NCBI GenBank assembly: GCA_963731995.1
Contig: CAVSXV010000004.1
Span: 576,973-640,972, forward strand
Direction: 5' to 3'
Source: an uncultured Chloroflexia bacterium
Lineage (GTDB): Bacteria > Chloroflexota > Limnocylindria > Limnocylindrales > CSP1-4
DNA: 64,000 nt
How positions within the stretch are numbered: the stretch's first letter is position 1; each line of letters starts with the position of its first letter. This document shows, piece after piece, positions 1,812-41,680 of the stretch. The notes under the pieces were generated by a model. It was not told where the DNA came from. It saw only the letters and a program-made list of their open reading frames with translations, and did not search any database. Position numbers and translations under genes: made by a program.

Positions 1812-2453
1812 ATGAGCGACGAGAGCAAGACCCCCAAGGTTCCCGCCGCCCCGCCGGCCTCCCAGCCGGAGCGGCGTTCGACCCTGCCTGCTGCCCCGCC
1901 GGAACGGCGCGTGACGGAGATCGACAAGCAGCGCGTGCCGATGGCCGCCAAGCCCTACCGGCTACTGGCCCTGGTCAAGCAGGATGCCGTGGTCCGTGTC
2001 CAGAAGGAACCGGACGACACGGTCATGACCTGGCCGCACCTGCTCAGCATCGAGTTCTTCGCGGCGGCCATGATGAGCATCTTCCTGCTCCTGATGGGCT
2101 TGTTCGTGAACGCCCCGCTCGAGGAGCTGGCCAACGGCAACGTCACCCCCGCCGTGGCCAAGGCGCCGTGGTACTTCGTGGGCCTGCAGGAGCTGCTGGC
2201 CTACTTCCACCCCACGGTCGCCGGCGTGCTCGCGCCCACCGTCATCCTCGTCGGCGCGGCGCTCGTGCCCTTCATCGACCGAGGCCCCAAGGGCGACGGC
2301 GGCTCGCCTCGTCCATCGGACCGCAAGGTCGGCGTGATGCTCTTCACGCTGTTCATGGGCGCGGGCCTGACGATCACCTTCCTGGGAGCCTTCTTCCGCG
2401 GGCCGGGCTACGCCTGGACGATGCCGTGGGATGGCTTCTTCTTCGCACTGTAG
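1812..2453 (+). CDS. cytochrome b subunit IV-like protein (C-terminal half of a split cytochrome b)
   Basis: 'KAPWYFVGLQELLAYFHP' is the PEWY-loop equivalent and is followed by hydrophobic helices. There is a Pro/Ala-rich N-terminal extension. The gene lies 15 nt after the cytochrome b6 stop. Confidence 0.75.
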   Translation: MSDESKTPKVPAAPPASQPERRSTLPAAPPERRVTEIDKQRVPMAAKPYRLLALVKQDAVVRVQKEPDDTVMTWPHLLSIEFFAAAMMSIFLLLMGLFVNAPLEELANGNVTPAVAKAPWYFVGLQELLAYFHPTVAGVLAPTVILVGAALVPFIDRGPKGDGGSPRPSDRKVGVMLFTLFMGAGLTITFLGAFFRGPGYAWTMPWDGFFFAL

Positions 2454-2460
2454 GGACACC

Positions 2461-3129
2461 ATGGGTAACTGGAAGCTGACACGAACCCAAGAGCCCCAGG
2501 CGCTGACCGAGCCGGTCCTGAGTGAGATGCGCAAGGGCAAGATCGGTGGCCTCACCCGCCGCCAGCTCATCCGCCGCTCCATCGGGGCGGCTGTGGCGCT
2601 GTGGCTGCTGGAGGTCGGCGCCGGCACGCTCGGCTTCCTGTGGCCCAATCTGGCTCGCGGTTTCGGCGGCCAGGTCAACCTCGGTGACTTCGACACCGTG
2701 GCCGAGAGTCCGGACAATCCGGCCGCGACGCTCACCCAAGGTGGCGCCTCCTACTTCTCGAGTGCCCGTGCCTTCATCGTCCTCAACGATCCCAATCTCG
2801 CGTTCCAGAACGGTGAATCAGCTGATGGCGAAGGGACTGCCACCAACGTCCGGACGCTGTACCAGAAGTGCCCCCACCTGGGCTGCAAGCCCAACTTCTG
2901 CGACACCAACTACTGGTTCGAGTGCCCCTGCCATGGTTCGCGCTACGACCGCCTGGGGACCAAGGTCAAGGAGCTGGGCCCGGCCCCGCGCGGCCTTGAC
3001 CGCTTCCCGCACACCGTGCAGGACGGGAATCTCACGGTCGATACCGGCAGGATCGTGCTCGGGCCGCTGCCCGTGGCCCTCGGTCAGCCCGGCCTTATCC
3101 CGGCCAAGTCGCCCACGGGCTGCATTTGA
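2461..3129 (+). CDS. Rieske 2Fe-2S protein
   Basis: 'CPHLGC' (from 2869) and 'CPCHGSRYD' (from 2923) are the cluster-binding boxes. The N-terminal 'TRRQLIRRSIGAAVALWLL' looks like a Tat-like signal or membrane anchor. ORF 2431..3129; ATG 2461 was chosen as start. Confidence 0.85.
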   Translation: MGNWKLTRTQEPQALTEPVLSEMRKGKIGGLTRRQLIRRSIGAAVALWLLEVGAGTLGFLWPNLARGFGGQVNLGDFDTVAESPDNPAATLTQGGASYFSSARAFIVLNDPNLAFQNGESADGEGTATNVRTLYQKCPHLGCKPNFCDTNYWFECPCHGSRYDRLGTKVKELGPAPRGLDRFPHTVQDGNLTVDTGRIVLGPLPVALGQPGLIPAKSPTGCI

Positions 3130-4779
3130 TGAGCGAAGAGAAGACCGGACGTGAGCTCGCGCCGCGCGAGCCCTCTGATGTCGGGCCCCCGGATGGCTCG
3201 CTGACGCCGGTCGAAGGCGACAACCGCGAGGTCGAGCGGTTCAGCGCCGGTCCCCGTGCTCACAGCGTGGGTCTGACCGAGGAGCGCTCCGCGAAGATCG
3301 TCCGCCAGAGCGCCAACGCGCGCAACGTCGTCTTCCTCGCGATCCTGCTCATCGCACTCTTCATCCCGGTCTACTGGTTCTACGAGAGCGGCATCCCCGC
3401 GCTGGGCACCGAAGGCCGCCTTGCAGCAGAGGCGGACACCCAGTACGTGACCGACGTGGCCCGTGGCTACGAGCTCTACCTCGCCAACTGCGCCACCTGC
3501 CACGGCGAGGACGGCCAGGGCGGAATCGGCCCCCGGCTCAACGACCAGGGCAAGCTCTACAACGTGCTCACGCCCGGCGGCGATCCGGGCACGGGGCACC
3601 TCAACCCCGACTACCTGCACAACGTGCTCAACGTCGGCGGACGCTACGTGTGCGGCGACCCCAACAGCCTGATGGCCCAGTGGCAGCGGCCCGCCGGGCC
3701 GCTCAACTACCGGCAGATCGAGGAGCTCATCGCCTGGGTGACGGCCAGCCAGGACGTCACCTTCGAGCGGCGCGTGGAGACACACGGCGAGGGTGTCCAG
3801 GGCGAACCCGAGTTCATCTCCGGCTGGCGCGACCCCGACTATCAGCCTGGCCCGGAGGACACCCCGGTGCCTGACTGCTGGAAGGCACCCGGTGGACTCG
3901 TACCGGGCACCGTCGAAACCACCGGCACCACCGGTACGACCGGCACTCCCGACACGGGCACGGCGGATACGTCCACCATGGGCATCACCGCCGGCACGCC
4001 AGATGCGCCCCGCGTGATCAGGATGACCGCCACCGCCTCGCTGCAGTTCATCGGCGAGGATGATGCCCCGCTGACCCAGATCGACGTCCTCCCAGGCGAG
4101 ACCATCGAGTTCGTGGTGGACAACGGGGCTGGCTTCGATCACAACTTCTACATCGGCACGCCAGAAGAGCTGCAGGTCCCGTTCGGTGAGACGGATGCTG
4201 GCATCCCCACCTGGCAGTCGGGCGAGCAGACCCTCATCTGGACGGCGCCTGAAACCGGTGTCGACAACCTCCAGTTCGCCTGCACGGTGCCCGGCCACTA
4301 CCAGCCCATGCACGGCGACATCAGGTTCAGCGGTGGTGAGCCCGCCGCGGAAGCGAGCCCGGACGGCGGAGCTGCCGAGGCGACCCCCGCTGCCGGCGAG
4401 ACCGGTGGGGCAGAACCCGCCGCTGGCGTGGGCACTCCGGATGCACCGCGCATCGTCGAATCTCACGGCCACCGCTGCGCTGCAGTTCCTGGGTGAGGAC
4501 GGGGCCCCGCTCAAGCTGCTCGATGCGGTGCCGGGCGAGACCATCGAGTTCGTCATCGACAATGAGGCCGGCTTCGACCACAACTTCTGGATCGGCCCCA
4601 CGGACGAGGTCTCCGTGCCGAACAACGAGACCGACAACGGCATCCCCACCTGGCAGTCCGGCGAACAGACGCTGACGTGGACCGTGCCCGAGGCCGGAAC
4701 CGAGGGTCTGCAGTTCGGCTGCACGATCCCCGGCCACTATGCCGCCGGCATGCACGGCGATATCGTGATCTCGGGCTAG
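3129..4779 (+). CDS. membrane-anchored mono-haem cytochrome c fused to two tandem type-1 copper (cupredoxin) domains; frame broken near 4455-4460
   Basis: ATG 3129 overlaps the Rieske TGA (TGATG). There is a TM helix 'VVFLAILLIALFIPVYWFY' and a haem box 'CATCH' at 3489-3503. Two ~105-aa modules each follow 'GTPDAPR(V/I)': 'GFDHNFYIG...FACTVPGHYQPMHGD' (frame of 3126..4496) and 'GFDHNFWIG...FGCTIPGHYAAGMHGD' (frame of 4186..4779). Confidence 0.75.
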
Positions 4780-4792
4780 GACAGGAGACGAC

Positions 4793-6289
4793 GTGTCACA
4801 GCAAGCACTCCCACAGGGCGCCACCCGCCGACGCGCTGCCTTCGGGCTGTTCGACGCGAACGGCTGGACCTGGGCCGGGCTGAAGGCGACCTTCTGGTTC
4901 CTGTTCATCATCTTCATGCTCGGGGTCGTGCCCAACTGGACCTACTACATCACCACCAGCGAGACCATCACCGTCGGCTACAACTTCGCCTCGATCGTCA
5001 ATCTCTGTCCCGCCGATAACGAGGACCTGCCCTGTCCGGCACCGGCCGGAGCCATGAAGCCCTGGCAGACCTCACCCCCGGAGCTGGCCCTGCCGGCGGC
5101 ACGCTCGGGCTCAGCTGTCTACCAGTCAGGTGCGACCGTCTACCTGCTTGGTGGCGTGGTCGACGGCACGGCCACCGATGAGGTCCTCGAGACCAAGATC
5201 AGCGAGGACGGCAACCTCAGCGGCTGGACCGCCGGTCCGGCCCTGCCGGAGCCACGCAGCGACATGGCTGTGGGCATGTACGGCGGTGTCCCCTTCGTGA
5301 TGGGGGGCCTCGATGGCGAGGGCAAGGCCACAGCCACGGTCTACAAGGGCACCGTGGAGGAAGGCGTACTGACAGGATGGGAGCTGCAGGACGGCCAGGA
5401 CCGCTCGCTACCATTGACCCTGCCGCAGCCGCTCAGCGGCGCCTCGGTGCTTCCCGGTACCAGCGGCTTCGTGCTCATCGGCGGGCGTGACGCCAACGGC
5501 GAACCCGTGAACGGCGTGCACGTAGCCTGGAGCGATACCGGCACCACCTCCGACGACCTCCTGGCCTGGGAGCCGCTCGACGAGCAGCTCGCACTGCCCG
5601 AGCCGCGTGCCGATGCGGTGGTGGCCACGATCGCCGACTTCATCTACGTGGTCGGGGGCGAAGGACCCGATGGGCCTACCGACAGCGTGTTCCGCCTCGA
5701 GCTGCGCGATCGTGAGCCGGCCGTCAACGAGGCCGGCGACCTGCTGGGCTGGGCGGTGGCACCAGCCGAGGAGTCCTTGCCCGCGCCGCGGGCCGATGCC
5801 ACCAGCTTCACCGCCAATGGCGCGGTCTTCGTCATCGGCGGCCTCGACGACCAAGGCGCCCCGCAGACATCGATGTTGTGGGCCGTGCCCGATACGACCA
5901 CCGGCGACATCGATAGCTGGCTGCAGCTCGCGCAGACCGACCTGCCCGTGGCCACCGCGGACGCACCGCTCGTGGGCGTGGGCTCGCATGTGTTCGTCTT
6001 CGGGGGCCAGACGCCCGACGGTCCGACGGACGGGTCGTTGCGCGCGGGAATCTCACCGCGCCCACCGTTCTTCCAGCTGGGCATCGCCGGCGCCACCATC
6101 CCTGGCCTCGCCATCAAGGGTGAGGTCGGCCAGCAGCTGGGCTACATGAACGCCATGGGCGTGGGCATGCTCAACTTCGTGATCCTGATCATCATCGGGG
6201 TGGCCTTCAGCCGGCCGGAGTCGAGCAAGCGCGTGATCGGTCGGATCCTGCGCATCAAGCCGGAGCCGGACGAGCAGTACCGCAGCTAA
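4793..6289 (+). CDS. Kelch-repeat beta-propeller membrane protein
   Basis: Six blade-like repeats are visible (VYLLGGVVDG, PFVMGGLDGEG, FVLIGGRDANG, IYVVGGEGPDG, VFVIGGLDDQG, VFVFGGQTPDG). They lie between an N-terminal TM (FWFLFIIFMLGVV) and a C-terminal TM (MLNFVILIIIGVAF). GTG start with AGGAG upstream. Confidence 0.7.
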   Translation: MSQQALPQGATRRRAAFGLFDANGWTWAGLKATFWFLFIIFMLGVVPNWTYYITTSETITVGYNFASIVNLCPADNEDLPCPAPAGAMKPWQTSPPELALPAARSGSAVYQSGATVYLLGGVVDGTATDEVLETKISEDGNLSGWTAGPALPEPRSDMAVGMYGGVPFVMGGLDGEGKATATVYKGTVEEGVLTGWELQDGQDRSLPLTLPQPLSGASVLPGTSGFVLIGGRDANGEPVNGVHVAWSDTGTTSDDLLAWEPLDEQLALPEPRADAVVATIADFIYVVGGEGPDGPTDSVFRLELRDREPAVNEAGDLLGWAVAPAEESLPAPRADATSFTANGAVFVIGGLDDQGAPQTSMLWAVPDTTTGDIDSWLQLAQTDLPVATADAPLVGVGSHVFVFGGQTPDGPTDGSLRAGISPRPPFFQLGIAGATIPGLAIKGEVGQQLGYMNAMGVGMLNFVILIIIGVAFSRPESSKRVIGRILRIKPEPDEQYRS

Positions 6290-7485
6290 CGCCCCCGCCG
6301 GGCGATCGCCAGCACCGGCTGGGCGGAGTCGTCCACCGCAACCAATCGCAGGTCCGGCGCGCGTGCCACGATGCTCGTGTCCGCCACGGCCACGATGCCT
6401 CCGCGCTCCAGGACCCGGGCCGGATCGAGCTTGGCGTCTGCGGCCATCACCACCAGGCGGTAGTGGCCGTCGGGTAGGTGGCGGGCCTCGTCTGCGGCTG
6501 CGACAAGCCACTCGAAGCCATCGGGAAGGGGTGTGCTGGGCGCTTCTCCGATCCATACGGCCGGGCCTCCGGAAGCCATGGCGGCCGCCTCCGTGACGTG
6601 GACCATCCAGCGGCGCTGCGCCGTCCTGGCAGCCTCGATCCCGACGCGCTCGTAGTCGTCGATCGCGCTGCGCAGCGGTTCGAGGACGGCCGTGTTGGCG
6701 CCATCGAGCCAGGCCACGGTGCTTGCGCCGGCGTCGAGCCAGTCGGTCAGCGGGTCGTTCGAGGGGGCCACCGCCCCCCATGCCAGCTCGCTGTCCGAGA
6801 CGATGGCGCGATCGGGGAGGGGGCCGGGTAGCAGCAGCCGTGCCACGCCCAGCGCGCGGGCCCATTCGAGCCAGGCCTCGAGATCGGCGCTGGCGAGCGC
6901 CTCGGTGGTCAGGGCGGTCCACACCGGCAGTCCCATCTCGAGCGCTTCGACGGTCGCTGTACGCGCGTCTGACTCGCCTCGCTGGCCCTCGACGAGGATG
7001 AGGTCCGGCTCCGCGTCGGCGATGGCCCCGGCCTGGTCGCGGTAGTCGCGTTCGGTCGCAGCTTCATGGGGCAGGAGCCGCCCGGTTGCGACCTCCGGCT
7101 CCTCGTCAAGCGCGGGCAGCGACGCGGCCACGAGGGGTGCGGGGCGGCTTCGGCGGACCTCGTCATCGGGCGCCTCGATGAGGGCTTCCTCGCGTCGCTC
7201 CATGCCGATCTCGAGCGCCTGTCGCGCGGTGCGTACGGCGGCTGCGGTCCAGGCTCCGGCGCGGCGGGTCTCACCGAGGGGCAGCAAGGCCCGACGGTGC
7301 GTCAGCCAGGTGGGTGCGACGACCACGTCGGCACCAGCGGCGACCTGGCCAGCGAGCCGCTCGCGAGCGGCTGGCTCGTCGCGCAGGTGGAGTGGCAGGT
7401 ACCAGTCAGCGTCGTCGGCGTTCGGACGCGCCGGCACCCGCTCCGGACCGACCGATCCAGCCAGCAAGCGCACGCGGTCTGCCAT
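6286..7485 (-). CDS. hypothetical protein; N-terminal region resembles the homocysteine S-methyltransferase fold but has no Cys
   Basis: 399-aa ORF with good GC3. 'LLAGSVGPER...VAAGADVVVAPTWLT' recalls S-methyl_trans domains. The protein contains no cysteine. It lies 23 nt downstream of the rhodanese gene on the same strand. Confidence 0.45.
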   Translation of the reverse strand: MADRVRLLAGSVGPERVPARPNADDADWYLPLHLRDEPAARERLAGQVAAGADVVVAPTWLTHRRALLPLGETRRAGAWTAAAVRTARQALEIGMERREEALIEAPDDEVRRSRPAPLVAASLPALDEEPEVATGRLLPHEAATERDYRDQAGAIADAEPDLILVEGQRGESDARTATVEALEMGLPVWTALTTEALASADLEAWLEWARALGVARLLLPGPLPDRAIVSDSELAWGAVAPSNDPLTDWLDAGASTVAWLDGANTAVLEPLRSAIDDYERVGIEAARTAQRRWMVHVTEAAAMASGGPAVWIGEAPSTPLPDGFEWLVAAADEARHLPDGHYRLVVMAADAKLDPARVLERGGIVAVADTSIVARAPDLRLVAVDDSAQPVLAIARRGR

Positions 7486-7508
7486 GTCGTTCGAGCGGTC
7501 GATGGGAT

Positions 7509-7883
7509 CTAGAAGTCGCCCTCGCCGGGCTCCGGCTCACCACTGGTGGTGGGCAGGCCCGCATTGTGCCAGGCCACGATGCCGCCGCTGACGTTGGTCA
7601 CGTTCTCGAAGCCGTTGGCCGCGAGGAACTGGGTCGCGTTGGCGCTGCGGCCCCCGGTGCGGCACATCAACAGGATCTCGCGGTCACGCGGCAGATCCCT
7701 GACGCGATTGTTGAGACGGCCGAGCGGCAGCAGCACCGCGCCCCTGGCCCGCAGCTGTGCGTATTCATTGGGCTCCCGCACGTCGATGATGAGGGCCCCG
7801 ACATCGTCGCCCTGCATCTCGGCAGCCTGCTTGACGTCGACCGAGGGCACACCCTGGCCCATGAGGTTGCGAAGGAAGGACAT
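7509..7883 (-). CDS. rhodanese-domain sulfurtransferase
   Basis: 'IIDVREPNEY...ILLMCRTGGRSANATQFLAANGFENVTNVSGGIVAWHNAG' carries the active-site CRxGxR loop. ATG 7883 (MSFLRN...) was chosen inside ORF 7509..7970. Confidence 0.85.
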   Translation of the reverse strand: MSFLRNLMGQGVPSVDVKQAAEMQGDDVGALIIDVREPNEYAQLRARGAVLLPLGRLNNRVRDLPRDREILLMCRTGGRSANATQFLAANGFENVTNVSGGIVAWHNAGLPTTSGEPEPGEGDF

Positions 7884-8084
7884 GTCTACTCCAGTTTGGG
7901 TCGGTGGTACGCGGCTGGAGAACGACCCAGCCTTGAGCTTCGTGGAGACACGGCGGCGTCTCAGCGCCATAGCCTAGATGCTACCCGTGCTCCGCGTGCC
8001 AGACGGCTTCAGGCACCGTTGGCGGCGACTGGTGCCACGGCCGTATGCTTCTCACTCGATAGCCGGACTTCGCTCGGAGGGACG

Positions 8085-9275
8085 ATGGTGAGACGCTCAT
8101 TCCCGGTGTTGGTGATGGTCCTCTCGCTGGTGCTGGCCGCCTCGGGCGTGGTGTGGGCCGCGGAGCCGCCGGACGACATCCCCGATGGCATGGAGTGGGA
8201 TGCGACCGAGCAGCGGCTCATCGGACACGACGAGCTTCTCGAGCGCGACGCGCAGGCACTTGCCGACCGCTTCGACTGGTCCCTCGAGTACGCCAAGGCG
8301 CGCGTGCTGACCAGCGAGCGTGCCGACAAGGCCATGGCGCGGGTGCAGCGGCTCCCGAGCTTCGCGGGCTCCTACTGGGACAACGAGGACGGCGGTGCGA
8401 TCACCTTCATGTTCAAGGACGAGGTTCCCGCTGGCGCGCTCGACGAGGTCCGGGAGCTGGCACTGGTGCCGGTCGAGGCGAAGGTAGCGGAGTACTCCAT
8501 GCGCGATCTGGAGCGCTTCCAGCGCCAGGCGAACAAGATCCTCAGGAAGACGCCGGGCGTCGGAGACTGGACGACCGCCCTCGATCCGAGCCGCCAGCTG
8601 GTGGTCGCGTCGGTCGTCGTCGACGACCCGAAGCTGAGCCGGAGCATCGAGGCCAAGGTCGGCCGGCGGGTACCGGAGGGCGTGGTGGATCTCGAGTTCA
8701 AGGTGCAGACTTCAGCGACGCGACCGCGGCAGGACGTCTGCCTCCGCGTCAGCGGCAGCGAGCCAGGCTGGACCAAGGCCATCGCCAGGGACATCACGGC
8801 GGGTACGGCGGCTGTCGATGGCGCCGGGGTGGACTGTGCCGACGCCGAGTGGTCGAGCAAACCGCGGCGGGGGGCCTGTCTGCGGGTCGTCGGCAGCGGT
8901 GAGCTCGAGACCCGTGCCATCGCGCGCCAGGTGGCCGCGGGCAAGGCGAGAGTCGTCGGCGCGGGCACGGCCTGTGGGGCGGACCCGGTGCCGCTCATCG
9001 CGGCCCCCGACACCGACGTCACGAACGTCCGCGAGATCTCGTGGCAGCGGATCGAGGTCGAACCCGGGGGTCGGACCCTGCATGTCTACTACCGCGACGG
9101 TCCCTTCGATTGTCGCGGCCTGGACCGGCTCGAGGTGTCGTCCTCGGACGCCGGCCTCGACGTGCAGGTCTTCAGCGGCTACCGCTCGGACTCGATCTCA
9201 TGTCTCGCGATCGCCGTGCCCTGGGTGGCCATCGTCACGCTCGACGAGCCGGTCGTGCTCGGTGGCGGGGACTAG
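8085..9275 (+). CDS. secreted hypothetical protein with an internal Cys-bracketed repeat
   Basis: ATG 8085 gives the signal peptide 'MVRRSFPVLVMVLSLVLAASGVVWA'. The upstream part of ORF 7314..9275 is antisense to the rhodanese gene. The repeat is 'CLRVSGSEPGWTKAIARDITAG...C' / 'CLRVVGSGELETRAIARQVAAG...C'. Confidence 0.65.
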   Translation: MVRRSFPVLVMVLSLVLAASGVVWAAEPPDDIPDGMEWDATEQRLIGHDELLERDAQALADRFDWSLEYAKARVLTSERADKAMARVQRLPSFAGSYWDNEDGGAITFMFKDEVPAGALDEVRELALVPVEAKVAEYSMRDLERFQRQANKILRKTPGVGDWTTALDPSRQLVVASVVVDDPKLSRSIEAKVGRRVPEGVVDLEFKVQTSATRPRQDVCLRVSGSEPGWTKAIARDITAGTAAVDGAGVDCADAEWSSKPRRGACLRVVGSGELETRAIARQVAAGKARVVGAGTACGADPVPLIAAPDTDVTNVREISWQRIEVEPGGRTLHVYYRDGPFDCRGLDRLEVSSSDAGLDVQVFSGYRSDSISCLAIAVPWVAIVTLDEPVVLGGGD

Positions 9276-11845: not shown

Positions 11846-11941
11846 GGCGCGGCGCAGGCCGCTGTTCGGCGCTTGGTCAGGGACGGAGCGGTACCTTCGG
11901 GTACGGTCTCGTGCGGTGGCGGAACCGTAGGCTCATCGGTG

Positions 11942-13471
11942 ATGGCCCAGCACGAGATGCCGGCCGCGTCTGCCGAGTCTGCCGACGCCCGCCAAGCCGA
12001 CCCCAGCGACCAGCCTCTCGCGAGCCCTCGCTCGTCACGCTGGGCCATCTCACGCGGCTCGTTGGTCGCTTTCATGGCGGTGCTCCTGCCAGCCGCGGCC
12101 TCTCTGCTGGCGCCCGTGCTCACCGAGGACATCGCCTACCACTTGCGCTCAGGCGCGCACATGCTCGAGACCCGTGCGCTGCTCGACGCGGACCTCTTCA
12201 CCTTCACCGTCGCGGGCGATGCCTGGCTGAACCAGCAATGGGCCGCGAGCGTCCTCTTCGCGGCGGTCTACGACGTCGCTGGCTGGCTGGGCCTGCTGAT
12301 CCTGCGCTCGGTGCTCATCGGAGCCGCCTTCGGGCTGGTCTACCTCGCCTGTCGGGCCAGCCAGGCCAACCGCATCGTGGCTTCGCTGGTGACCCTCGGT
12401 GCGTTCGTGGTGGCGGCCACCAACCTCGCTCTGCGCTCGCAGCTGTTCGGGGTCGTCTTCTTCGCGGGGGTGCTGGCGATCCTGGCCTGGCGTCGGAAGC
12501 ACCCGTGGCTGCTGGTGCTCATCCCGCTCTTGATGGTGGCCTGGGCCAACACGCATGGCTCGTTCTTCATCGGCTGGGCCGCGATCGGGGTGGCCTTCCT
12601 CGAGGACCTCGTCGCCCGAAGACGGCTGGCCGCCGCGACCTTCGCGGTCGGCGTCCTGAGCGTGCTCGCCACGCTGGTCACGCCGTGGGGCGCGGAGATG
12701 TGGGTCTACGTCGTGGATCTCTCCTCCAACCCCGTCGTCGCTGCTCTCGTGAGCGAGTGGCAGGCTCCCACGCTCGGCTCGGCGACCGGGATCTTCTTCT
12801 TCGCCTCGGTCGCGCTGGTGGTCGGCTTGCTGCTGTATCGCGGTCGCGTCATCTCGTGGCTGCAAGTGCTCTGGCTCGGGGGTCTCGTCCTGCTCAGCCT
12901 GATGGCTGCCCGCAGCGTCGTCTGGTGGGCACTTGGCGCCGCCCCGGTGGTGGCGTTGCTCCTGAGTGGCCTGGAGGTCCGCGGTCACCGGGTCGGCGAT
13001 CCCGCCTACGACGAACCCCGCGGCATCGGCTACACCGCCATCGCCGGGCTGCTCATCGTGCTCACGCTCGCGGTCGTGCCCTTCTACCGCCCGAGCGACC
13101 CGCTCTACGGTCCCGAAGGTGTCGTCCAGCACGCGCCACGCGGGGTGACCGAGGCCCTCGCGGCCGAAGCAGGCCCCGGCGACCGGCTCTACGCTGCCCA
13201 GCGATGGGGTTCGTGGTTGGAGTTCGCGCTTCCCGGGGTGCCGGTGATGGTCGACACGCGCATCGAGCTCTTCGACAGCGAGATCTGGTCCGACTACCTG
13301 GCGGTCGCGAGTGGGCGGTCTGACTGGTCGGAGGTCCTGGAGCGCTGGGGCGTCACTCTCATCGCAGCCGAAGCCGGGAACCAGGACCTGCTCCCGTTCG
13401 TCGAGGCCGATGATCGCTGGCAGCGGGTGCACGCCGACGATGAAGGCGCCGTCTACCGGAAGGTGCGGTAG
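11942..13471 (+). CDS. polytopic integral membrane protein (GT-C-like glycosyltransferase fold suspected)
   Basis: More than 10 hydrophobic helices are followed by a soluble C-terminal domain. 'DIAYHLRSGAHMLETRALLDADLFTFTVAGDAWLNQQW' sits near the N-terminus. ORF 11873..13471; ATG 11942 chosen. Confidence 0.55.
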   Translation: MAQHEMPAASAESADARQADPSDQPLASPRSSRWAISRGSLVAFMAVLLPAAASLLAPVLTEDIAYHLRSGAHMLETRALLDADLFTFTVAGDAWLNQQWAASVLFAAVYDVAGWLGLLILRSVLIGAAFGLVYLACRASQANRIVASLVTLGAFVVAATNLALRSQLFGVVFFAGVLAILAWRRKHPWLLVLIPLLMVAWANTHGSFFIGWAAIGVAFLEDLVARRRLAAATFAVGVLSVLATLVTPWGAEMWVYVVDLSSNPVVAALVSEWQAPTLGSATGIFFFASVALVVGLLLYRGRVISWLQVLWLGGLVLLSLMAARSVVWWALGAAPVVALLLSGLEVRGHRVGDPAYDEPRGIGYTAIAGLLIVLTLAVVPFYRPSDPLYGPEGVVQHAPRGVTEALAAEAGPGDRLYAAQRWGSWLEFALPGVPVMVDTRIELFDSEIWSDYLAVASGRSDWSEVLERWGVTLIAAEAGNQDLLPFVEADDRWQRVHADDEGAVYRKVR

Positions 13472-16562: not shown

Positions 16563-17858
16563 CTACGACGTGGCGTCGACCAGCAGAACGACCCCGAAGG
16601 TGCCATCGGCAGGGGAGCCGATAGCGTAGGCGCTGTAGTTCGTGCCCTTTTCGAGCGAGACTGCCGGCAGGTCGGCGATGACGCTCTTCTTGCCCGGTTT
16701 GCGGACGTCCAGGTCGTAGTCGCCCGCCTTCAGGGTCAGGTACTTGCCGACATCCTTGTAGGAGACCTTCTTGGCGATCGCGTCCTTGGGCTTGGCGCCG
16801 TCGGGAGCGATGTCGACCTTGGGTGCGTCAGCGCTCAGATGACCCAGGCGAAGCTTCGCTCGGTTGGCCTTGGTCACGGTGTTGTCCTTGACGACCGTGG
16901 CGTCGATGTTTGCGAGGTCATTACTCGCGATGATGGTCGTACGCGTCCCACCCTCGAAGGGCAGGGTCGCATCGATGACGACCGGGCTCTCCTCGAGCGA
17001 GCCGCCCGACGGGATGATCTGGATCTGGTTCTCTCCGACCGGCACGGTGAGATAGGGCGAGCTCAGCCCGAACGGCAGGTTCCCGAAGACCCGAACGCCG
17101 TTGATGACGACGTCGATCGGCGGTGCATCTGGTGATCCGTGGAGGATGCGCACCTGTGCCGTGGTAGGGACGGAGGCGTCGAGCGCTGGGACGACGGTGA
17201 ACGTTCCTGCTTCGAGACTGCCGACCGCGAACGCGCTGGAGCTCGTTCCGGCGGCGAACTCGAGCGGCGGCAGTGTGACCACCGCGTCGGGGCTGCCGGT
17301 GGCTCGAACCTCGAGCTCGTAGCTGCCGGGGGGCAGGTTCGCGTAGCCGGAGTCATCCGGATATGCCAGGTTGGTGATGATGGGGTCACCGCCGACAGGT
17401 GCGATGTCGACCGGCGGGGCGTCGAACGCGAAATGGACGACGCGTGCCTGGGCCTCCGTCGGGCTGGGGTTGGGATCGTCGATCACCGACTGCGGGACGA
17501 TGCCGTCCGCGAGGCTGCCAGTGGCCGCCACGGTGGTGGCTGTACCCGCTTCGAACGTGATCGGGGCATCGATGACCACCGGACCCTCGTCGAGCGTCGC
17601 GCCCGCGGGCACGACCTGGATCTGATACTCGGCTCCCGGGACCTCCAGGTAGTCGGTGATGGAGCCGAACTCCAGCCCCTCCACGATGCGATCGCCGTTG
17701 GCGTACACGTCCACGGCCGGTGCATCGCCGGAGCCGTGAAGGACGCGCACCTTGGCGTTCTCGCCCTGGGCCGCTGTTGCCGCCGGCATGGCCAGGAGTG
17801 CCGCAAGTGCTAACGAGCTGGCGAGCACCTTGGCACTGTGGATGGTCGATCGGGGCAT
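16563..17858 (-). CDS. secreted DUF4397 repeat protein
   Basis: A signal peptide is followed by four repeats of the type 'VRVLHGSGDAPAVDVYANG', 'ARVVHFAFDAPPVDIAP', 'VRILHGSPDAPPIDVVING' and 'LRLGHLSADAPKVDIAP'. GGAGGA precedes the ATG. Confidence 0.8.
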   Translation of the reverse strand: MPRSTIHSAKVLASSLALAALLAMPAATAAQGENAKVRVLHGSGDAPAVDVYANGDRIVEGLEFGSITDYLEVPGAEYQIQVVPAGATLDEGPVVIDAPITFEAGTATTVAATGSLADGIVPQSVIDDPNPSPTEAQARVVHFAFDAPPVDIAPVGGDPIITNLAYPDDSGYANLPPGSYELEVRATGSPDAVVTLPPLEFAAGTSSSAFAVGSLEAGTFTVVPALDASVPTTAQVRILHGSPDAPPIDVVINGVRVFGNLPFGLSSPYLTVPVGENQIQIIPSGGSLEESPVVIDATLPFEGGTRTTIIASNDLANIDATVVKDNTVTKANRAKLRLGHLSADAPKVDIAPDGAKPKDAIAKKVSYKDVGKYLTLKAGDYDLDVRKPGKKSVIADLPAVSLEKGTNYSAYAIGSPADGTFGVVLLVDATS

Positions 17859-18733: not shown

Positions 18734-19417
18734 ATGCGCATGATCTGGCTCGTCCGCGGGGCAACCGCGATGGTGGCACTGGTCGCCATCGCGTCGACCG
18801 CCACCTCCGCCGGCGCCACTGAGGAGCCGTCGACCCCGCCAGCACCCCCGACGTCCGAACCTGCGGAGACATCGGGCCAGGAGTCGACCCAGCCCGCCAC
18901 GGCCGAACCGCGGGAATGCCGGCGCCTCACCGACTTCACCGCCGAGGACACTGGTGCGTGGTTCGTGGTGAACGACGGCGTCATGGGCGGCCGCTCAGAT
19001 GGTGGTGGGTTCATCGATGATTCGGTGCTGCGGTTCGAAGGCAGCGTCGTGACTGCTGGGGGTGGATTCACGAGTGCCAGGCTTCGCCTGGAAGGGGACG
19101 AGCTGGTCGACAGCACCCGTATCGAGATGCGGGTGCGCCCTGACGGACGGAAGTACGGCCTCACGCTGGAGGATGCCGCTGAATTCCGTGGACGCCCGGT
19201 GTCGCACCGGGCTGATCTCGACATCGGTCCTGTCGATGGGGACGGCTGGGCGGTCGCCACCGTGGAGTACGACCAGCTCGTGCCCTCGGTGTTCGGGATC
19301 CTCGTCGACGCGCCGCCGTTCGACCCCGCCACAGCTCGTGAGTTCGGGATCATCATCGCCGATGGCGTCGACGGCGACTTCGCCCTCGACATCGACTGGA
19401 TCGACGCCTGCCCCTGA
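18734..19417 (+). CDS. secreted CIA30-domain protein
   Basis: A signal peptide is followed by 'FVVNDGVMGGRSDGGGFIDDSVLRFEGSVVTAGGGFTSARL', typical of the complex I intermediate-associated protein 30 domain. Confidence 0.7.
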   Translation: MRMIWLVRGATAMVALVAIASTATSAGATEEPSTPPAPPTSEPAETSGQESTQPATAEPRECRRLTDFTAEDTGAWFVVNDGVMGGRSDGGGFIDDSVLRFEGSVVTAGGGFTSARLRLEGDELVDSTRIEMRVRPDGRKYGLTLEDAAEFRGRPVSHRADLDIGPVDGDGWAVATVEYDQLVPSVFGILVDAPPFDPATAREFGIIIADGVDGDFALDIDWIDACP

Positions 19418-33531: not shown

Positions 33532-34206
33532 ATGACCGTCGTGGCGGGCATCGATGGCTACCGCCGTGGCTGGGTCGCCATCGTGCTCGTCGAGGGACGC
33601 TTCGAAGCCGCCCTTGCGAAGCCTGACCTCGCCGCCCTCGTGGCTCGGCTCGGGAACGCCTGGACCATCGGCGTCGACATCCCTATCGGTCTGCCGGAGC
33701 GAGGACCACGCTCCGCGGACATCGAAGCACGGCGCTTCGTGGGTCCGCGTCGCAGCAGCGTGTTCCCGACCCTGCCTCGAGCCGTCTGGGAGGCACCTGA
33801 CCTCGTGGCTGCTCGCCAGCTCAACCGCGAGCTCAACGGTCGCTCCGTTTCGGCGCAGACCTTCGCCCTCCGGGACAAGGTCCTCGAAGCTGATGCTTTG
33901 GCGCGGTCCGACCCTCGTATCCGGGAAGCGCACCCGGAGGTCTCCTTCCGGGCCATCGCCGGCCAGCCGCTGGCGTCGTCCAAGTCCTCGTGGGCAGGGA
34001 TCTCGCTGCGGCGCGGGCTCCTGCTCGGTGTCGGCATCGAGCTACCCGATGAGCTGGGTGAGGCTGGGGCGGCCGGCATCGACGACATCAACGACGCGGC
34101 GGTGGTGGCCTGGACGGCCGGTCGCATCGCGACCGGTGAAGCCCAGTCGTTCCCTGCCGTGCCGGTGCCCGGTCCCGACGGGATCGCTGCCGCCATCTGG
34201 TACTAG
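33532..34206 (+). CDS. DUF429 family protein (predicted RNase H-like fold)
   Basis: 'VAGIDGYRRGWVAIVL' and 'IGVDIPIGLPERGPRSADIEARRFVGPRRSSVF' are present. ATG 33532 was chosen inside ORF 33448..34206. Confidence 0.65.
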   Translation: MTVVAGIDGYRRGWVAIVLVEGRFEAALAKPDLAALVARLGNAWTIGVDIPIGLPERGPRSADIEARRFVGPRRSSVFPTLPRAVWEAPDLVAARQLNRELNGRSVSAQTFALRDKVLEADALARSDPRIREAHPEVSFRAIAGQPLASSKSSWAGISLRRGLLLGVGIELPDELGEAGAAGIDDINDAAVVAWTAGRIATGEAQSFPAVPVPGPDGIAAAIWY

Positions 34207-34387
34207 GACCTGTCGCCGGGACCCGCACCACGCATCCATCGTGGCCGGGCTCGCCTCGACGGACAGGTCGTCTAGCAGCGCTTGCGCTGTGGCGGCATCG
34301 CACAGTCCACTGGGACGACGGCTGCTCGCTGAGGCGCATCTAGTACGGCCGGATATTCCCAGACCTCCGCCTCACAGGCCCTGCCGA

Positions 34388-34668
34388 CTATCGATCCGGG
34401 GTGATGACGTAGACCCCGGGGTGCTTTCGATTCCGGTTGGTGCCGAAGGCCCAGATCTCGCCCGTGGGTGTGATAGCCACCGGGCGGAGACAGACGCCGT
34501 CGAGATAGCGGGTCAGCTGCTCCCCGTCGAGCTTGGCGTAGCCCCCACACCCGCTGCCGCGTTTGCTGGCGTCGTCCTCGACGACGTTGACGACCGACCA
34601 GTCGCCATCCGCCTCGAGCCTTGTGGTGTGCCAGGCTCCGCGCTGCCAGATGTCGGGAGATGGCCCGG
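34388..34668 (-). pseudogene. C-terminal fragment of a beta-propeller-type protein
   Basis: It ends 'VAITPTGEIWAFGTNRNRKHPGVYVITPDR*', similar in style to the C-terminus of the 25300..26604 protein ('GSAWAVKDSGLYVIKPEA'). No start codon lies before the upstream gene's stop at 34669. Confidence 0.3.
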
Positions 34669-34929
34669 CTACGACTCGACGAGCATGACGACCGAGTCGG
34701 CGTGGACGCCGTCGTGCTGCATGGCCTCGCTGGCGGCCTCGGAGGCCATCGCCTCCTGAAGCTTGGCTACGTCGGGAACCTCCAGGATCACCCCGGTCCG
34801 CTTCGACCCGCCAGGATCGACGAATGTCCGGACCGTGATGCCGTAGGTTCCGAAGAACGCCGCTCGCTTCGGCGAATTGAGCCAGTGATCGACGTCGTCC
34901 ACCTCGTGGAATGCGATGACGGTCGCCAT
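34669..34929 (-). CDS. small conserved-looking hypothetical protein
   Basis: GAGGAGA precedes ATG 34929. It reads 'MATVIAFHEVDDVDHWLNSPKRAAFFGTYGITVRTFVDPGGSKRTGVILEVPDVAKLQEAM'. No family name was assigned. Confidence 0.55.
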   Translation of the reverse strand: MATVIAFHEVDDVDHWLNSPKRAAFFGTYGITVRTFVDPGGSKRTGVILEVPDVAKLQEAMASEAASEAMQHDGVHADSVVMLVES

Positions 34930-35340
34930 GGTGTCTCCTCGGGCTGTCCCGCCGGGCATATCTGTGCGGCGACGAATCGGGTCCGCGCTGCTCCTCCCCT
35001 TGCCGGCGCGTGCAGCCTACCGCAACGACTCGATGTGGGGAAGATGGCGTCCTGCGCCACGATCGGCGTATCGCGATGTGCCAAGGTAACAACGACCCCG
35101 ACGCGAGCTGTGAGAACGTCGCACCTCGCTCGCCTGCGAACGCAAGCATCAGGTACGGCACCCGGTGCTCATCACCGAAGCTGGCACAGTCGTCGAAGTT
35201 GGCTGCCATGACCACGGAGTCGAGGACGTGAACCCCAGTCAGCTCGACCGAGAGCGAACCGGACTCGTACCGGTCGCCGGTCGATCCCATCTGGGCGCCG
35301 CTGCTCGTATCGCGACCGACCTGTAGCATCCTTCGACGAG

Positions 35341-36078
35341 ATGAGAAGTCGGATCCTCGCCGATCGCGCTCAAACCCCCTGCTATGAGCGCACCCTGGCG
35401 CCCGTCCTGGGAGCGCTGATCGTCGCCGTCGCGCTCATCGTGGGGGCACTCCCGGTCGCCGCTGGATCCGCCCTCTCGCCCTGGAGTGGTGGCGTCGACC
35501 TCTACCGGCCGGGCGTGTTCAGCACCCAGAAGACGTGGCACTGGTGCACCGCGGCGGACGTCCAGATCATGCGCAACATCGTCCACCACGAGACGAACCA
35601 CAAGCGAGCCCAGCAGCACCGGTTCTTCGACCACATGCGGGCCCACGATCGCTACCCGATCCCGGTACGTGACGGCGTCGACCCGGCCGGCTGGACAGCC
35701 GGCTTGCGCCACTTCGTCGACTCGCGCTATCGCCTGGTAGCAAGCCGCAGCTTCAAGGCCGCGCTGCGCTCCGCGGTACGCAACCTACGGCGCACCAACC
35801 TTCCGGTGGGGATCACCGTGGCGCACGGCAACCATGCATGGGTGCTGACCGGCTTTGAAGCCACCGCCGACCCCGCCAGGACCCACCAGTTCAGAGTCAC
35901 GAGCGTCCGTGTAACCGGGCCCTTGTGGGGCCTCCAGAGCCGTAGTTACGGCTACGACATGCATCCCGACAAGGAGCTCACGCGGAGGCAGTTCAAGCGC
36001 TTCTTCACACCATGGCACTACGCGCGGACGCGGATGGCCTGGGAGGGCCGCTGGGTATCGGTGCAACCGATCCCGTAG
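35341..36078 (+). CDS. membrane-anchored or secreted protein with papain-like cysteine peptidase motifs (C39-like)
   Basis: An N-terminal hydrophobic anchor is present. 'STQKTWHWCTAADVQIM' fits Gln...Cys and 'GNHAWVLTGF' fits His, with papain-fold spacing. Confidence 0.4.
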   Translation: MRSRILADRAQTPCYERTLAPVLGALIVAVALIVGALPVAAGSALSPWSGGVDLYRPGVFSTQKTWHWCTAADVQIMRNIVHHETNHKRAQQHRFFDHMRAHDRYPIPVRDGVDPAGWTAGLRHFVDSRYRLVASRSFKAALRSAVRNLRRTNLPVGITVAHGNHAWVLTGFEATADPARTHQFRVTSVRVTGPLWGLQSRSYGYDMHPDKELTRRQFKRFFTPWHYARTRMAWEGRWVSVQPIP

Positions 36079-36388
36079 ATGGCGAACTGCGGACGTCGTG
36101 TCCCCGCATGGGAGTGGCGAGACGACGTCCTTCCGGTTCCCTACGTTCTCGTTGCCCAAGGGCGAGGGTCATCTGCGCCGGGCGCGGCGCGAGATCACGG
36201 CTACCGTCTTGACTCCATCGACAACGAGCAGTACCGATACTGGGTCAAGGACCGCTGGGGCTTCGAACTTCACGGTGCCGAGGGCTTCGACGCCATCGGT
36301 GGACTGCTGCACACCAAGGTGGACGCCGAGAATGACGCCAGAGTGGCACCACCACTTGGTACACGAGTCGGAGGTCGGAAGAGACCTC

Positions 36389-37078
36389 CTACGGGTCCAG
36401 TGCTCCACTGGTCGCCGTCCTCGCTCCCCGCCAGAAGGCCATCACCGCAGCCGCCGCTGTCAACACCATTCCCAACCAGAACAGCGGCCAGGCGGACCAC
36501 GGGGACGTGTCCCCGGCGACGACGCGGTCAGCGTCGACCAGGAAGCTCAGGATGACGAGGCCGCCGCCAGCTAGTGCTATCACCATGCCCCTCCGCCCGA
36601 TGGCGATTTCGCGACCGGCCCGCAGCCGGGCCGCAGCGGCCAGCCCGAAGCCAACGAGGGCAGTGCTCACGGCCATCGGCGCCCAGACCGGTCCGATCCA
36701 GGTCATGGGCACGAGGAAGAGGACGTCCCAGGCATCGAGCGCCGGGGGCCAATCGATGGTCAGCCACAGGCCAGCGTAGTAGACGATGTCCCAGGTCCCG
36801 AACACGACGGCCGCCCAAGCGAGACGCTCGAGCCAGCTGCGGCCGGCGAGCCAGCCGACGGCGGCGATCATGACGAGCGTGGCCAGCTCGCGTGCGATCT
36901 CGATGCCGGCGTAGGCGTCGAACTCCCCAGGCTGGGCCACGGGAACGGGGACGGCGGCATCCAAGCCGAGCGCGGCTCGCAGGTAGACGACGACCGTTGC
37001 CTCGAGGTAGCCCATCGCGATGCCGAAGGCGAGGACCACGATGGCCGTCGCGAGGAACGAGCTCTGCTGTCGGCTCAT
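36389..37078 (-). CDS. polytopic membrane protein, unknown family
   Basis: About 7 hydrophobic helices ('FLATAIVVLAFGIAMGYLEATVVVYLR...'). ATG 37078 was chosen inside ORF 36389..37129. Confidence 0.55.
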   Translation of the reverse strand: MSRQQSSFLATAIVVLAFGIAMGYLEATVVVYLRAALGLDAAVPVPVAQPGEFDAYAGIEIARELATLVMIAAVGWLAGRSWLERLAWAAVVFGTWDIVYYAGLWLTIDWPPALDAWDVLFLVPMTWIGPVWAPMAVSTALVGFGLAAAARLRAGREIAIGRRGMVIALAGGGLVILSFLVDADRVVAGDTSPWSAWPLFWLGMVLTAAAAVMAFWRGARTATSGALDP

Positions 37079-37556
37079 GGCTCGTTCTGACAGGTGAGCA
37101 TCTGGATTCACGGTCGGTCGCTCCCCCATGGCACGGGTGTCAAGGCCGCAGGAGCCGCGTGCGGGCTCGAGAGAGGACTGCTGAACGCCCGGCGAGTGCC
37201 ATCGTCACATCACGCTGCAAGGCCTCATCGTAACGGCCCAGGACGGACACGATCAGGGTGTCCTCTCCGACACCATGCGTCCATCGTGGTTGGTGACGTG
37301 CGCGCCTACCGCTTCCGGCCGAGGCCGACGATGACTGTGACCGGGAGTTCCGTGACGTTCTGGCCGTAGGTCGCCTGGGCGACGAGGCGCTCATCTCGAC
37401 TCCGGCTCGTGCCGGACGACGTCGACGTCCTTGCCGCGCTCGAGGATCGATGCCCCGACCCGGCTGGGTGGACGACCCGGGTTGATCAGGCCGCGCGACC
37501 ACCGACAGTCCACCTTATCCTTGTCTCATCGGCTTCTGGCGTGAACGGGGGGTTCC

Positions 37557-39212: not shown

Positions 39213-39228
39213 ACGCGTAGGAGGAGTC

Positions 39229-40515: not shown

Positions 40516-40527
40516 CCGAGGACCAAC

Positions 40528-41680
40528 ATGATTCGGAAGCTGACCCCGCTGTTCGCCATCGTCCTGACTGTCGTGTTCGCCGCCCCAACTGCAGCGCAGG
40601 CAGAAGAGTCCGGCCGCGATGTGCTGAATGACATCGAGGCCACGGTCTCCGGGGTGCAGGCCGAGCTCGCGGCCATCGACCAGCGTGTCGCCAGCGACGA
40701 CTGGATGGTCTTCGAAATTTGCCAGGCAGGGGCTGGTGCAGGTCGACCTCGGCGGGCTGGACCAGTGGATCCCCGGCGTGATCTCGCTGCGCCGGGACGC
40801 CGCTGGTTCACTGCCTGCAGATGGCCTCGACCCGCTCGCGGGCACCATGCCGGAGTTGTGGCAGGCATCGGTGCTGCTCGCGGATGCGCCCGACGAGGTG
40901 CTGGAGGCTGGAGCGGAAGCGACCCGTGCCTGGCTGCGCGACCGGTTCGGCCACCTGCAAACCACCGAGCGCAAGGACGCCCTCTACGAAGCCGAGCGTG
41001 CCCGGCTCCTCGACGATCTGGATGCTTTGCGGCAGAGCCGCGAGTTCTTCATGTCCGAGACCCCCCGGACCGAGACCGCTGACACCGAGAGTGCGGCGCA
41101 AAGCGAGACCCTCCAGGTCGAGCAGTGGTGTCGCGAGTTCGCGCTCGGCGAAACCCTCATGTCCGAGGATGGGTCGGTCGAGTTGGGTCCGCAGATGCCA
41201 CCCATCGAGGAGCTGCCCGACTGGTGCCGCGATGCGCTGCTGGCGCGGTTGACCGGCGCTGACGGGCTCACCGCGACGCCCCCGCCAAACGATGAGGTGG
41301 TGGCGCAGGAGCCGGTACGACGCAGTGAGGACCCGCTCGAGTGGGAGGGTGACGAGGCCATCGACCATGGCCGCTGGGATGGCGTCTGGGAGTACTGGGG
41401 CTACCCGGGCCTGACCCTGGTGCAGGTGGGCGGCAACGTCTTCGGCACCTACCAGGCCGGCGACGGCTGGATGAAGCTCGTCGTGGTCGACGAGCACACG
41501 CTCATCGGGCACTGGTACGAAGGCGAGCACCCGGCCGTCTGCGATCGTGAGCGGGACGGCACCGTCCACTGGGGCTCGCTGGAGATGCGTTTCAACGATG
41601 ACTTCAGCGCGTACAGCGGGTCCTTTGGAGACTGTGACAGCCTGACTGACTTCGCGATCGAAGGGAGTCGTGCCCGATGA
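40528..41680 (+). CDS. secreted paralog family protein P2 (one frame break near 40715-40722)
   Basis: A signal peptide is followed by an N-module alignable to P1 and P3 ('SDDWMVFE...GLVQVDLGGLDQWIPGV'). ORFs 40528..41082 and 40628..41680 join at a 'ttt' run. Confidence 0.6.

Follow-up and report, generated by a model that had tools for sequence, protein, structure and literature searches.

What is a blue-copper protein doing inside the gene for a membrane-bound cytochrome c, and which complex would such a fusion serve? The question is raised by a gene at positions 3129–4779 (+ strand) of a 64,000-nucleotide stretch of contig CAVSXV010000004.1, from an uncultured Chloroflexia bacterium; the whole stretch is referred to here as the window. 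An initial annotation had read the gene as a membrane-anchored cytochrome c joined to two tandem copper carriers and acting as a built-in electron wire. Judged from its sequence and its neighbours, the gene is likely to encode the cytochrome c subunit of a Rieske/cytochrome b6 complex in the Chloroflexota class Limnocylindria.

The assignment is made because the gene lies directly behind those for cytochrome b6, subunit IV and the Rieske protein, a position conserved in 80 related loci. The cytochrome b6-type subunit, a four-helix cytochrome b (1011–1796, + strand), matched PF00033 (E 1.5e-46) and the NCBIfam cytochrome b6 and ExtP-like models. Its open reading frame (ORF) opens at 954, and the GTG at 1011 was chosen as the start by orthology, matching position 7882 of the related locus L001. 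Subunit IV, the PetD-like C-terminal half of cytochrome b (1812–2453, + strand), was recognized by PF00032 and by ExtQ and b6f subunit IV models. The Rieske [2Fe-2S] protein (2431–3129, + strand) carries a twin-arginine leader (TRRQL) and the boxes CPHLGC and CPCHGS, and matched PF00355 and Rieske models. The ATG of the cytochrome gene at 3129 overlaps the Rieske stop codon (TGATG). Wherever the contigs of the 80 species-level Limnocylindria loci reach, the same order of six genes was observed: NfnB-like flavoprotein, cytochrome b6, subunit IV, Rieske protein, cytochrome c–cupredoxin and Kelch protein. The earlier proposal that the cytochrome belongs to the complex itself is thus upheld by its position. 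The neighbours are those of a cytochrome b6, subunit IV and Rieske cluster, and genes of alternative complex III (ACIII) are not among them.

All parts of the protein are encoded on the + strand. A conserved, hydrophilic and predicted cytoplasmic N-terminal segment (residues 1–66, 3129–3326), which includes VERFSAGPRAHSVGLTEERSAKIVRQS and has many invariant columns in 42 sequences, precedes a single transmembrane anchor helix, VVFLAILLIALFIPVYWFY (residues 67–85, 3327–3383), recognized as a 19-residue hydrophobic run. AlphaFold2 (AF2) predicted helix over residues 51–87 around the anchor. The topology signals are the basic residues ahead of the helix and the twin-arginine translocation signal of the Rieske protein; by the positive-inside rule (Lys/Arg before the helix) the N-terminus of the cytochrome c subunit would be inside. 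An extracytoplasmic mono-haem cytochrome c domain (3384–3881), identified by its CATCH haem box (3489–3503) and by Pfam matches, is followed by linker 1 (3882–4007; 42 residues, Thr/Gly/Pro/Ala-rich, ending GTPDAPRV) and cupredoxin module 1 (4008–4334; with FDHNF and CTVPGHYQPM, 4281–4310), the latter identified by profile, AF2 model and ligands. Linker 2 (4335–4445; 37 residues, Ala/Gly/Glu/Pro-rich and acidic, ending GTPDAPRI) leads to cupredoxin module 2 (4446–4776; PF00127, AF2 and Foldseek), of which PRIV is in frame 0 (4446–4457) and the remainder in frame +1 (4459–4776). In the AF2 model of an orthologue both linkers are disordered, with a predicted local distance difference test (pLDDT) score of 31–49 for linker 1 and 33–43 for linker 2. 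The anchor helix, the haem box, the linkers with their GTPDAPRV and GTPDAPRI ends and the motifs of both modules lie where the initial annotation had placed them.

When the frame was corrected as described below, the haem domain scored above the cut-offs of two Pfam cytochrome c families (PF13442, 30.5 bits against 27; PF00034, 29.3 against 21.3), in support of the cytochrome c assignment. The CATCH box (residues 121–125) is the sole CxxCH of the protein and forms, with a downstream Met, a class I-type arrangement. This Met182 (3672–3674) is invariant in 42 sequences and is the probable sixth haem ligand. Cys175 (3651–3653) and Cys250 (3876–3878) are invariant in the same set, and the pair may form a disulphide. 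Only the haem-box region (∼25 residues) aligned with solved cytochromes (QcrC or CcoP chains), and nothing was detectable beyond it. When the transmembrane and haem part was searched against 1.84 billion representatives, ∼60 clusters scored below 1e-30, and the weaker matches were multihaem proteins aligned over the haem box only. The cytochrome domain is thus a small lineage-specific family.

Both modules contain the ligand set of a type-1 copper site. In module 1 these are His338 (4140–4142), Cys385, His390 and Met394, with a C-x4-H-x3-M loop; in module 2 they are the His of FDHNF (4579–4581) and the residues of the loop CTIPGHYAAGM (4720–4752), which reads C-x4-H-x4-M. A His followed by Asn, as in FDHNF, is also found in azurin and plastocyanin. 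When a profile of 36 modules, each ∼110 residues long, was compared with 177,635 PDB sequences, the best match was auracyanin A (2AAN, E 2.5e-7), followed by the Roseiflexus auracyanin (6KOL, E 1.2e-3). The Cys loops agree in length and pattern: CTVPGHYPLM of auracyanin A corresponds to CTVPGHYQPM of module 1, and CTYPAHYAGGM of the Roseiflexus protein to CTIPGHYAAGM of module 2. PF00127 matched the whole corrected protein with 33.8 bits and module 2 alone with 26.4 bits (cut-off 21.2).

Structure prediction led to the same assignment. The modules of an orthologue were modelled by AF2 with a pLDDT of 90–98 (94–98 for module 1), and the in-frame part of the window's module 2 with a pLDDT of 96.5, a predicted template modelling score (pTM) of 0.88 and eight strands. 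With the module 2 model, Foldseek retrieved plastocyanin, auracyanins, rusticyanin and azurin (probability 1.00, template modelling score 0.55–0.75), as well as the N-terminal cupredoxin of Hyphomicrobium NirK (2dv6, 0.70). Residues His47, Cys94, His99 and Met103 (module numbering) do not vary among 146 modules from 117 proteins, a set that was selected by its Cys loop, so that only His47 is an independent test of invariance. The Cys loop is present in all 117 intact proteins among the 120 best homologues, the three exceptions being frameshifted or partial, and in all 117 the module forms the C-terminal part of the cytochrome c subunit. Between intact orthologues the modules evolve with a ratio of non-synonymous to synonymous substitution rates (dN/dS) of 0.3–0.4. 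By profile, predicted fold and conserved ligands, the modules are type-1 cupredoxins of an auracyanin-like kind that are predicted to bind copper. The initial annotation had named two findings that would speak against it, modules that are not cupredoxins and ligands that vary among orthologues; the profile search and the models gave cupredoxins, and the ligands are the same throughout the 146 modules.

A type-1 site could also serve copper itself, as in CopI-like periplasmic resistance or copper delivery. Two NCBIfam CopI models matched the protein weakly (67.4 and 34.3 bits, the first with two matched stretches), and its relatives currently carry the labels 'c-type cytochrome', 'cytochrome c family protein' and, at JGI, 'uncharacterized cupredoxin-like copper-binding protein', the last of which would suit such a role. 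These scores, however, fall well short of the CopI cut-offs (280 and 200 bits), and the match lies mainly over the shared Cys-loop region. The nearest solved relatives are electron-transfer auracyanins, and the gene sits within the Rieske/cytochrome b6 cluster in 80 loci, with no copper-resistance genes seen nearby. CopI has an extra His/Met-rich copper site; the module sequences hold no Met/His-rich stretch, although no search was aimed at that extra site. CopI belongs to the same broad cupredoxin subfamily, but it is a free periplasmic protein of copper-resistance loci and not a domain of a respiratory cytochrome. We consider a role in copper handling very unlikely.

Because the modules are 68% identical (BLASTP E 8e-54) and the underlying DNA repeat (4026–4300 and 4465–4739) is 74% identical, the pair is to be read as a real duplication, far beyond chance resemblance. 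Two cupredoxins in one chain might pack against each other into a catalytic unit, of the multicopper oxidase or nitrite reductase type, that is supplied by the haem, and the top Foldseek matches of the full-length model were indeed three-domain NirK and two-domain laccases (E about 1e-12). These matches have a root mean square deviation of 11–18 Å and a template modelling score of 0.15–0.21, and arise only from both partners having two cupredoxin folds. A disordered linker of 33–55 residues separates the modules, neither module has the HxH motifs of type-2 or type-3 copper, and most family members have a single module. Such a unit is extremely unlikely.

The linkers also bear on whether the modules stay attached. 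Every module has the same Pro3 and Arg4 at its N-terminal edge, following GTP(D/E)xPR, as would be expected if the Pro-Arg at module starts were a processing site that releases free cupredoxins from a polyprotein. A structural role suffices to explain the Arg, which AF2 places at the start of the first β-strand (residues 292–298); the cluster contains no protease gene, and released carriers would presumably be lost from a monoderm cell. We regard processing as highly improbable, and modules that remain tethered to the cytochrome as the preferred reading.

Relatives of the protein occur in 174 species-level genomes (903 matching protein clusters), so the family is not rare, and its hosts are abundant in soil and lakes without a cultured model. 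The named records are all Chloroflexota metagenome-assembled genomes (MAGs): 'Candidatus Limnocylindria', 'Limnocylindrales', CSP1-4 and many 'uncultured Chloroflexia' MFD MAGs. One cupredoxin is present in 88 of 109 full-length proteins, and two are present in the other 21. Three modules are present in P0006 and in L007 (10001–12172, 723 residues), where all have the x4-Met loop. When the N-terminal parts were placed in a neighbour-joining tree, a single module came out as the root state, and the two-module proteins fall mainly in one sub-clade that includes the window. Single-module proteins are nested in that sub-clade and P0049 represents a separate duplication, so that at least six changes are needed. 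The two-module homologues are 61–93% identical to the window protein; despite this substantial divergence of their N-terminal domains, they keep the ligands in both modules. Sibling modules are 57–98% identical, which makes duplication an old process that still continues. Loops of the x3-Met and x4-Met types are found in either order. Linker 1 has a median length of 33 residues (21–44) and a Gly/Ala/Pro/Thr composition, and linker 2 a median of 42 (33–55). An apparent second module past the stop codon in L011–L014 was rejected as an artefact of joining tblastn match ends; the Kelch gene directly follows there. The initial claim that the carrier is present in duplicate therefore needs division: it is right for this lineage, but in the window module 2 is out of frame, and one module is the norm of the family.

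A sister clade (L068–L083; for example L073 10001–11026) has the same transmembrane cytochrome c, joined to a PF13473 Cupredoxin_1 domain (46 bits, cut-off 27) with an amicyanin-like C-x2-H-x2-M loop (CSVHPNM). Either domain replacement or an independent fusion would account for it. No other comparative finding speaks as strongly for a functional partnership of haem c and type-1 copper as the attachment of two different cupredoxin families to the same cytochrome. One protein stands apart: P0054 (L084 6001–7302) is a 433-residue chain of three auracyanin-like modules, 96–98% identical, without a haem box. Its gene adjoins a LuxR-type AAA_16/GerE regulator and lies outside any Rieske/b6 cluster.

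Does the window itself encode two modules? The region 3129–4779 is not a single ORF. The ORF at 3126–4496 stops 12 codons past GTPDAPRIV, and module 2 continues in the +1 frame. The initial annotation had implied a frame problem by speaking of a frame-corrected protein, and MAFFT alignment with the orthologous DNAs of L001, L002 and L003 (90, 94 and 94% identical to the window's gene region) located it in one extra G at 4458 (+ strand), absent from all three, which are intact. The remaining indels in the gene relative to these loci are all multiples of three and all lie within linkers. The repeat spacing of 439 nucleotides (1 mod 3) agrees with a one-base shift. Removal of the G gives a product of 549 residues; the intact orthologues have 547 residues and read GTPDAPRIV NLTATAALQF across the site. 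The corrected protein is 93% identical to P0001 and 88% to P0002, and the intact module 2 of P0001 is 93% identical to that of the window.

Two explanations of the extra G were weighed. If the frameshift is real, module 2 would be a very recent untranslated relic and the cell would make a 455-residue protein in which the transmembrane helix, haem c and a single cupredoxin are followed by a loose linker and a 12-residue junk tail, resembling the one-module architecture that is commonest in the family; module 2, having no start codon and signal peptide of its own, would be silent. If it is an assembly error, the strain would make the full two-module protein. For error speak the three intact orthologous DNAs and the state of module 2, whose ligands and core residues are all intact and whose four window-specific replacements are all residue states found in intact, functional homologues. 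The G lies 7 nucleotides ahead of the second copy of the DNA repeat, and a repeat boundary is a plausible spot for an error in consensus polishing. The nearest relative of the window is an MFD MAG. Among the 80 related species-level loci the gene is frameshifted in 7 of 42 from nanopore (MFD) MAGs (L009, L010, L025, L040, L051, L067 and L069) and in none of 38 from other MAGs (Fisher p = 0.012), a statistic that covers the related loci. Further frameshifted copies occur among database proteins (P0020, P0023, P0026 and P0076).

Several points weigh against an assembly error. G 4458 is outside any homopolymer. It is also the only uncompensated coding indel over ∼13.7 kb of window DNA aligned to L001, and for this reason the assembly is not riddled with errors. 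The window-specific changes in module 2 are four non-synonymous to one synonymous, compared with 5:19 elsewhere in the gene (Fisher p = 0.02), an excess of replacements that could reflect relaxed constraint; the intact L002 copy has four replacements to three silent changes in the same module, and the counts are small. Modules have, moreover, been lost several times in the family. On balance, an assembly error is the likely explanation, and a real lesion with a silent second module is a minority reading, unlikely but to be taken seriously. A programmed frameshift was rejected as unlikely: no slippery sequence is present at CGC ATC GTC G AAT, and the three orthologues read through. Look-ups of the window's proteins in public assemblies, aimed at an independent copy of position 4458, returned no record.

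Shifts at the start of module 2 recur. One +1 G insertion follows PRIV in the window and a second, independent one follows PRAIKLD in L009 (∼11346), no more than three codons away from the first, and the frame of P0023 shifts ∼12 codons further on. This grouping marks either a hot spot of consensus error at the repeat boundary or a real slippage site. For annotation, the apparent split into two ORFs is probably a one-base assembly error; in nanopore MAGs, about one copy of the gene in six carries a shift of this kind.

The last and first genes of the cluster bear on what kind of complex it encodes. The Kelch gene (4793–6289, + strand) begins 14 nucleotides past the cytochrome gene behind AGGAG and encodes a membrane protein with a β-propeller (Pfam Kelch families) between N- and C-terminal hydrophobic helices. 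It is 39–79% identical in related loci and may serve the complex as an additional subunit or as an assembly factor. At the other end, the 3′ part of a gene for an NAD(P)H flavoprotein that resembles NfnB/GltD and ends in a 2x[4Fe-4S] ferredoxin domain (2–1054, + strand; Fer4 families and Pyr_redox_2) runs off the start of the window. In L001 this protein is complete (6069–7925, 618 residues); among solved structures it is closest to NfnA (9n5u, E 5e-106), NfnABC (9bov/9bp5) and FwdF (5t5i), and it also matches GltD. The gene overlaps the start of cytochrome b6 by 44 nucleotides and is conserved in all loci that reach it.

This flavoprotein raises the alternative that the Rieske/cytochrome b6 complex is NAD(P)-linked and either bifurcating or reversible, with the copper domains at its high-potential end. 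Haem c and copper would then form the downhill arm, and the electrons leaving by it would power the uphill reduction of NAD(P)+ by way of the b haems and the NfnB-like subunit; in another version, electron flow would be reversed and the cupredoxins would accept electrons from an outside donor, a role that rusticyanin has in Acidithiobacillus. Besides the overlapping and conserved gene, it is in favour of this alternative that 9bp5 and 5t5i are also the named homologues of the NAD(P) oxidoreductase subunits of Kuenenia, for whose Rieske/cytochrome b complexes quinol-driven production of NAD(P)H has been proposed (PMC12954380). Gene adjacency is no proof of subunit status, however, and the mechanism is unproven even in anammox bacteria. 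Limnocylindria are, according to a limited literature, mostly aerobic heterotrophs with no obvious need for reverse flow. An NAD(P)-linked complex would also alter the role of the complex and not the electron-carrier role of the cupredoxins. We consider this alternative doubtful. Equally speculative is a wider version in which the cluster encodes an as yet unrecognized kind of respiratory machine, an anammox-style NAD(P)-linked Rieske/b6 complex whose exit is haem c with a blue-copper 'fishing line' of variable length. Were it true, the line could reach oxidases or other acceptors tens of ångströms away across a monoderm envelope, and its high potential could help to drive quinol-based electron bifurcation towards NAD(P)+.

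For the favoured cytochrome c subunit of a Rieske/cytochrome b6 complex we propose the following path. Quinol would be oxidized at the Qo site, and one electron would pass from the Rieske cluster to haem c, the subunit standing in for cytochrome c1, cytochrome f or QcrC. Haem c would reduce the copper of a tethered cupredoxin, which would swing out on its linker and hand the electron to a separate partner, most plausibly a haem-copper oxidase. The covalent tether would replace the lipid or transmembrane anchor of free auracyanins and keep the carrier at the complex in a cell that is probably without a closed periplasm. Several modules would act as parallel, independently docking shuttles, giving more carriers and a longer reach. 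Parallel tethered shuttles are favoured over an ordered wire because the copy number varies, the modules occur in no set order and the long linkers are flexible. The built-in wire of the initial annotation is thus unlikely to hold as an obligatory sequence of carriers, given one to three modules and loop types in either order. Its description of a 'normally diffusible' carrier that has become tethered is correct as to the tether; Chloroflexota auracyanins, however, are themselves membrane-tethered and not freely diffusible.

Several observations weigh against this proposal. The initial annotation had directed the electrons 'towards a terminal oxidase', which was conjecture: neither the window nor the DNA up to 10 kb from the gene in 83 related loci contains a CuA or CoxA motif, and a Pfam survey of 29 further window ORFs showed no oxidase. 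The NfnB-like gene suggests a complex other than a plain Q-cycle bc complex, and the outward direction of electron flow is a proposal read from sequence. The cytochrome domain was modelled by AF2 with a pLDDT below 50 and offers no usable geometry for haem–copper docking, and module 1 alone had no Pfam match at E 0.01.

Elsewhere, two stretches of the window, ∼8010–9248 and ∼11876–13415, have no counterpart in L001, although the two sequences are collinear elsewhere; a 532-residue multi-helix membrane protein without a Pfam match is encoded in the second stretch. A protein with four DUF4397 repeats is encoded at 16563–17858 (− strand), and a protein with a bacterial CIA30 domain (complex I intermediate-associated protein 30) at 18734–19417 (+ strand); the CIA30 gene recurs at the end of L001. 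At 33558–42519, seven candidate ORFs in a row, each of 212–428 residues, have a high third-position G+C and no Pfam family at E 1e-4. The gene at 56412–57212 (+ strand) matches PALP (pyridoxal phosphate-dependent enzyme) only over profile positions 128–295 and may be truncated or frame-split.

The best sequence and fold matches of the modules are the auracyanins A and B of Chloroflexus aurantiacus and that of Roseiflexus castenholzii (2AAN, 1QHQ/1OV8 and 6KOL), which come from the same phylum and share the His/Cys/His/Met ligands and the loop patterns, yet are only ∼21–26% identical in Foldseek alignments. Auracyanins are reported to act at the membrane's outer face as partners of a quinol oxidoreductase (PMC10873879), a role like that proposed for the modules. 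Auracyanins are separate proteins of ∼125–140 residues with their own lipid or transmembrane anchor and ACIII as partner; here, modules of ∼110 residues in one to three tandem copies form the C-terminal part of a Rieske/cytochrome b6 cytochrome c subunit. Since they are neither free-standing nor linked to ACIII, the modules are, to judge by sequence and context, auracyanin-like and not auracyanins in the strict sense. Auracyanin-type proteins, so far tied to ACIII, are thereby connected with a Rieske/cytochrome b6 complex.

The subunit resembles other cytochromes of such complexes in its proposed function more than in descent. Cytochromes c1 and f are anchored by a helix that is not N-terminal, unlike the window protein. 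In QcrC, the dihaem cc subunit of the actinobacterial bcc-aa3 system, the mobile carrier has likewise been abolished by fusion to the cytochrome c of the complex, also in monoderm cells. The second domain of QcrC carries haem c and is rigid within the supercomplex, whereas here it would carry copper on a long disordered linker. QcrC chains (7q21_C, 6hwh_M and others) match the haem-box region only, and the NCBIfam QcrC model scores 24 bits against a cut-off of 200. By these comparisons the subunit does not appear to be a homologue of c1, f or QcrC, and is their equivalent by gene position.

Other tethered carriers provide partial parallels. Cytochrome cy of Rhodobacter (6xkx, among the haem-region matches) also combines a transmembrane anchor, a long flexible linker and a redox domain, and, while staying at the membrane, it shuttles between complex III and the oxidase (bioRxiv 10.1101/2020.06.27.175620); unlike the modules, this haem carrier has only one domain and forms a polypeptide of its own. 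Subunit II of caa3 oxidases and three-domain NirK with a tethered cytochrome c or cupredoxin unite a cupredoxin fold and a class I cytochrome c in one chain, so that the partner is tethered (PMC13324648). Those fusions are on the acceptor enzyme, whereas that of the window is on the quinol oxidoreductase, and the cupredoxin of the caa3 oxidase binds a binuclear CuA, whose motif is absent from the window. The Rieske/cytochrome b complexes of anammox bacteria (Kuste4569–4574 and Kustd1480–1485) likewise join an NfnB-like flavoprotein and an Fe-S chain with cytochrome b6, subunit IV and Rieske protein (PMC12954380). Their positive-side partners are multihaem cytochromes, in contrast to the one haem c and type-1 copper found here in another phylum with another lifestyle. 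In the full-text literature we found no description of a cytochrome c–auracyanin fusion or of the Limnocylindria Rieske/b6 cluster, which is not proof of their absence from it.

These comparisons suggest that (i) the auracyanin-type cupredoxin, the class I cytochrome c, the Rieske/b6 cluster and the tethering of carriers are each known, and the attachment of one to three type-1 copper domains to a Rieske/b6 cytochrome c appears undescribed in the literature searched; and (ii) the copy number of one to three, the two loop types and the second cupredoxin family amount to a natural experiment on tether length, carrier number and redox tuning. Membrane-bound type-1 copper proteins replace soluble cytochrome c downstream of Rieske/cytochrome b in archaea, namely sulfocyanin SoxE of the Sulfolobus SoxM complex and the halocyanins of haloarchaea, but these are separate proteins and involve no c-type haem. 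Where a periplasm is lacking, the exit of electrons has been solved by the dihaem cc of actinobacteria, by the membrane-anchored cytochromes of Bacillus and Rhodobacter, and by oxidases with a fused cytochrome c. To these the present family would add a further exit for Rieske/cytochrome b complexes, a haem c with one to three tethered type-1 copper domains.

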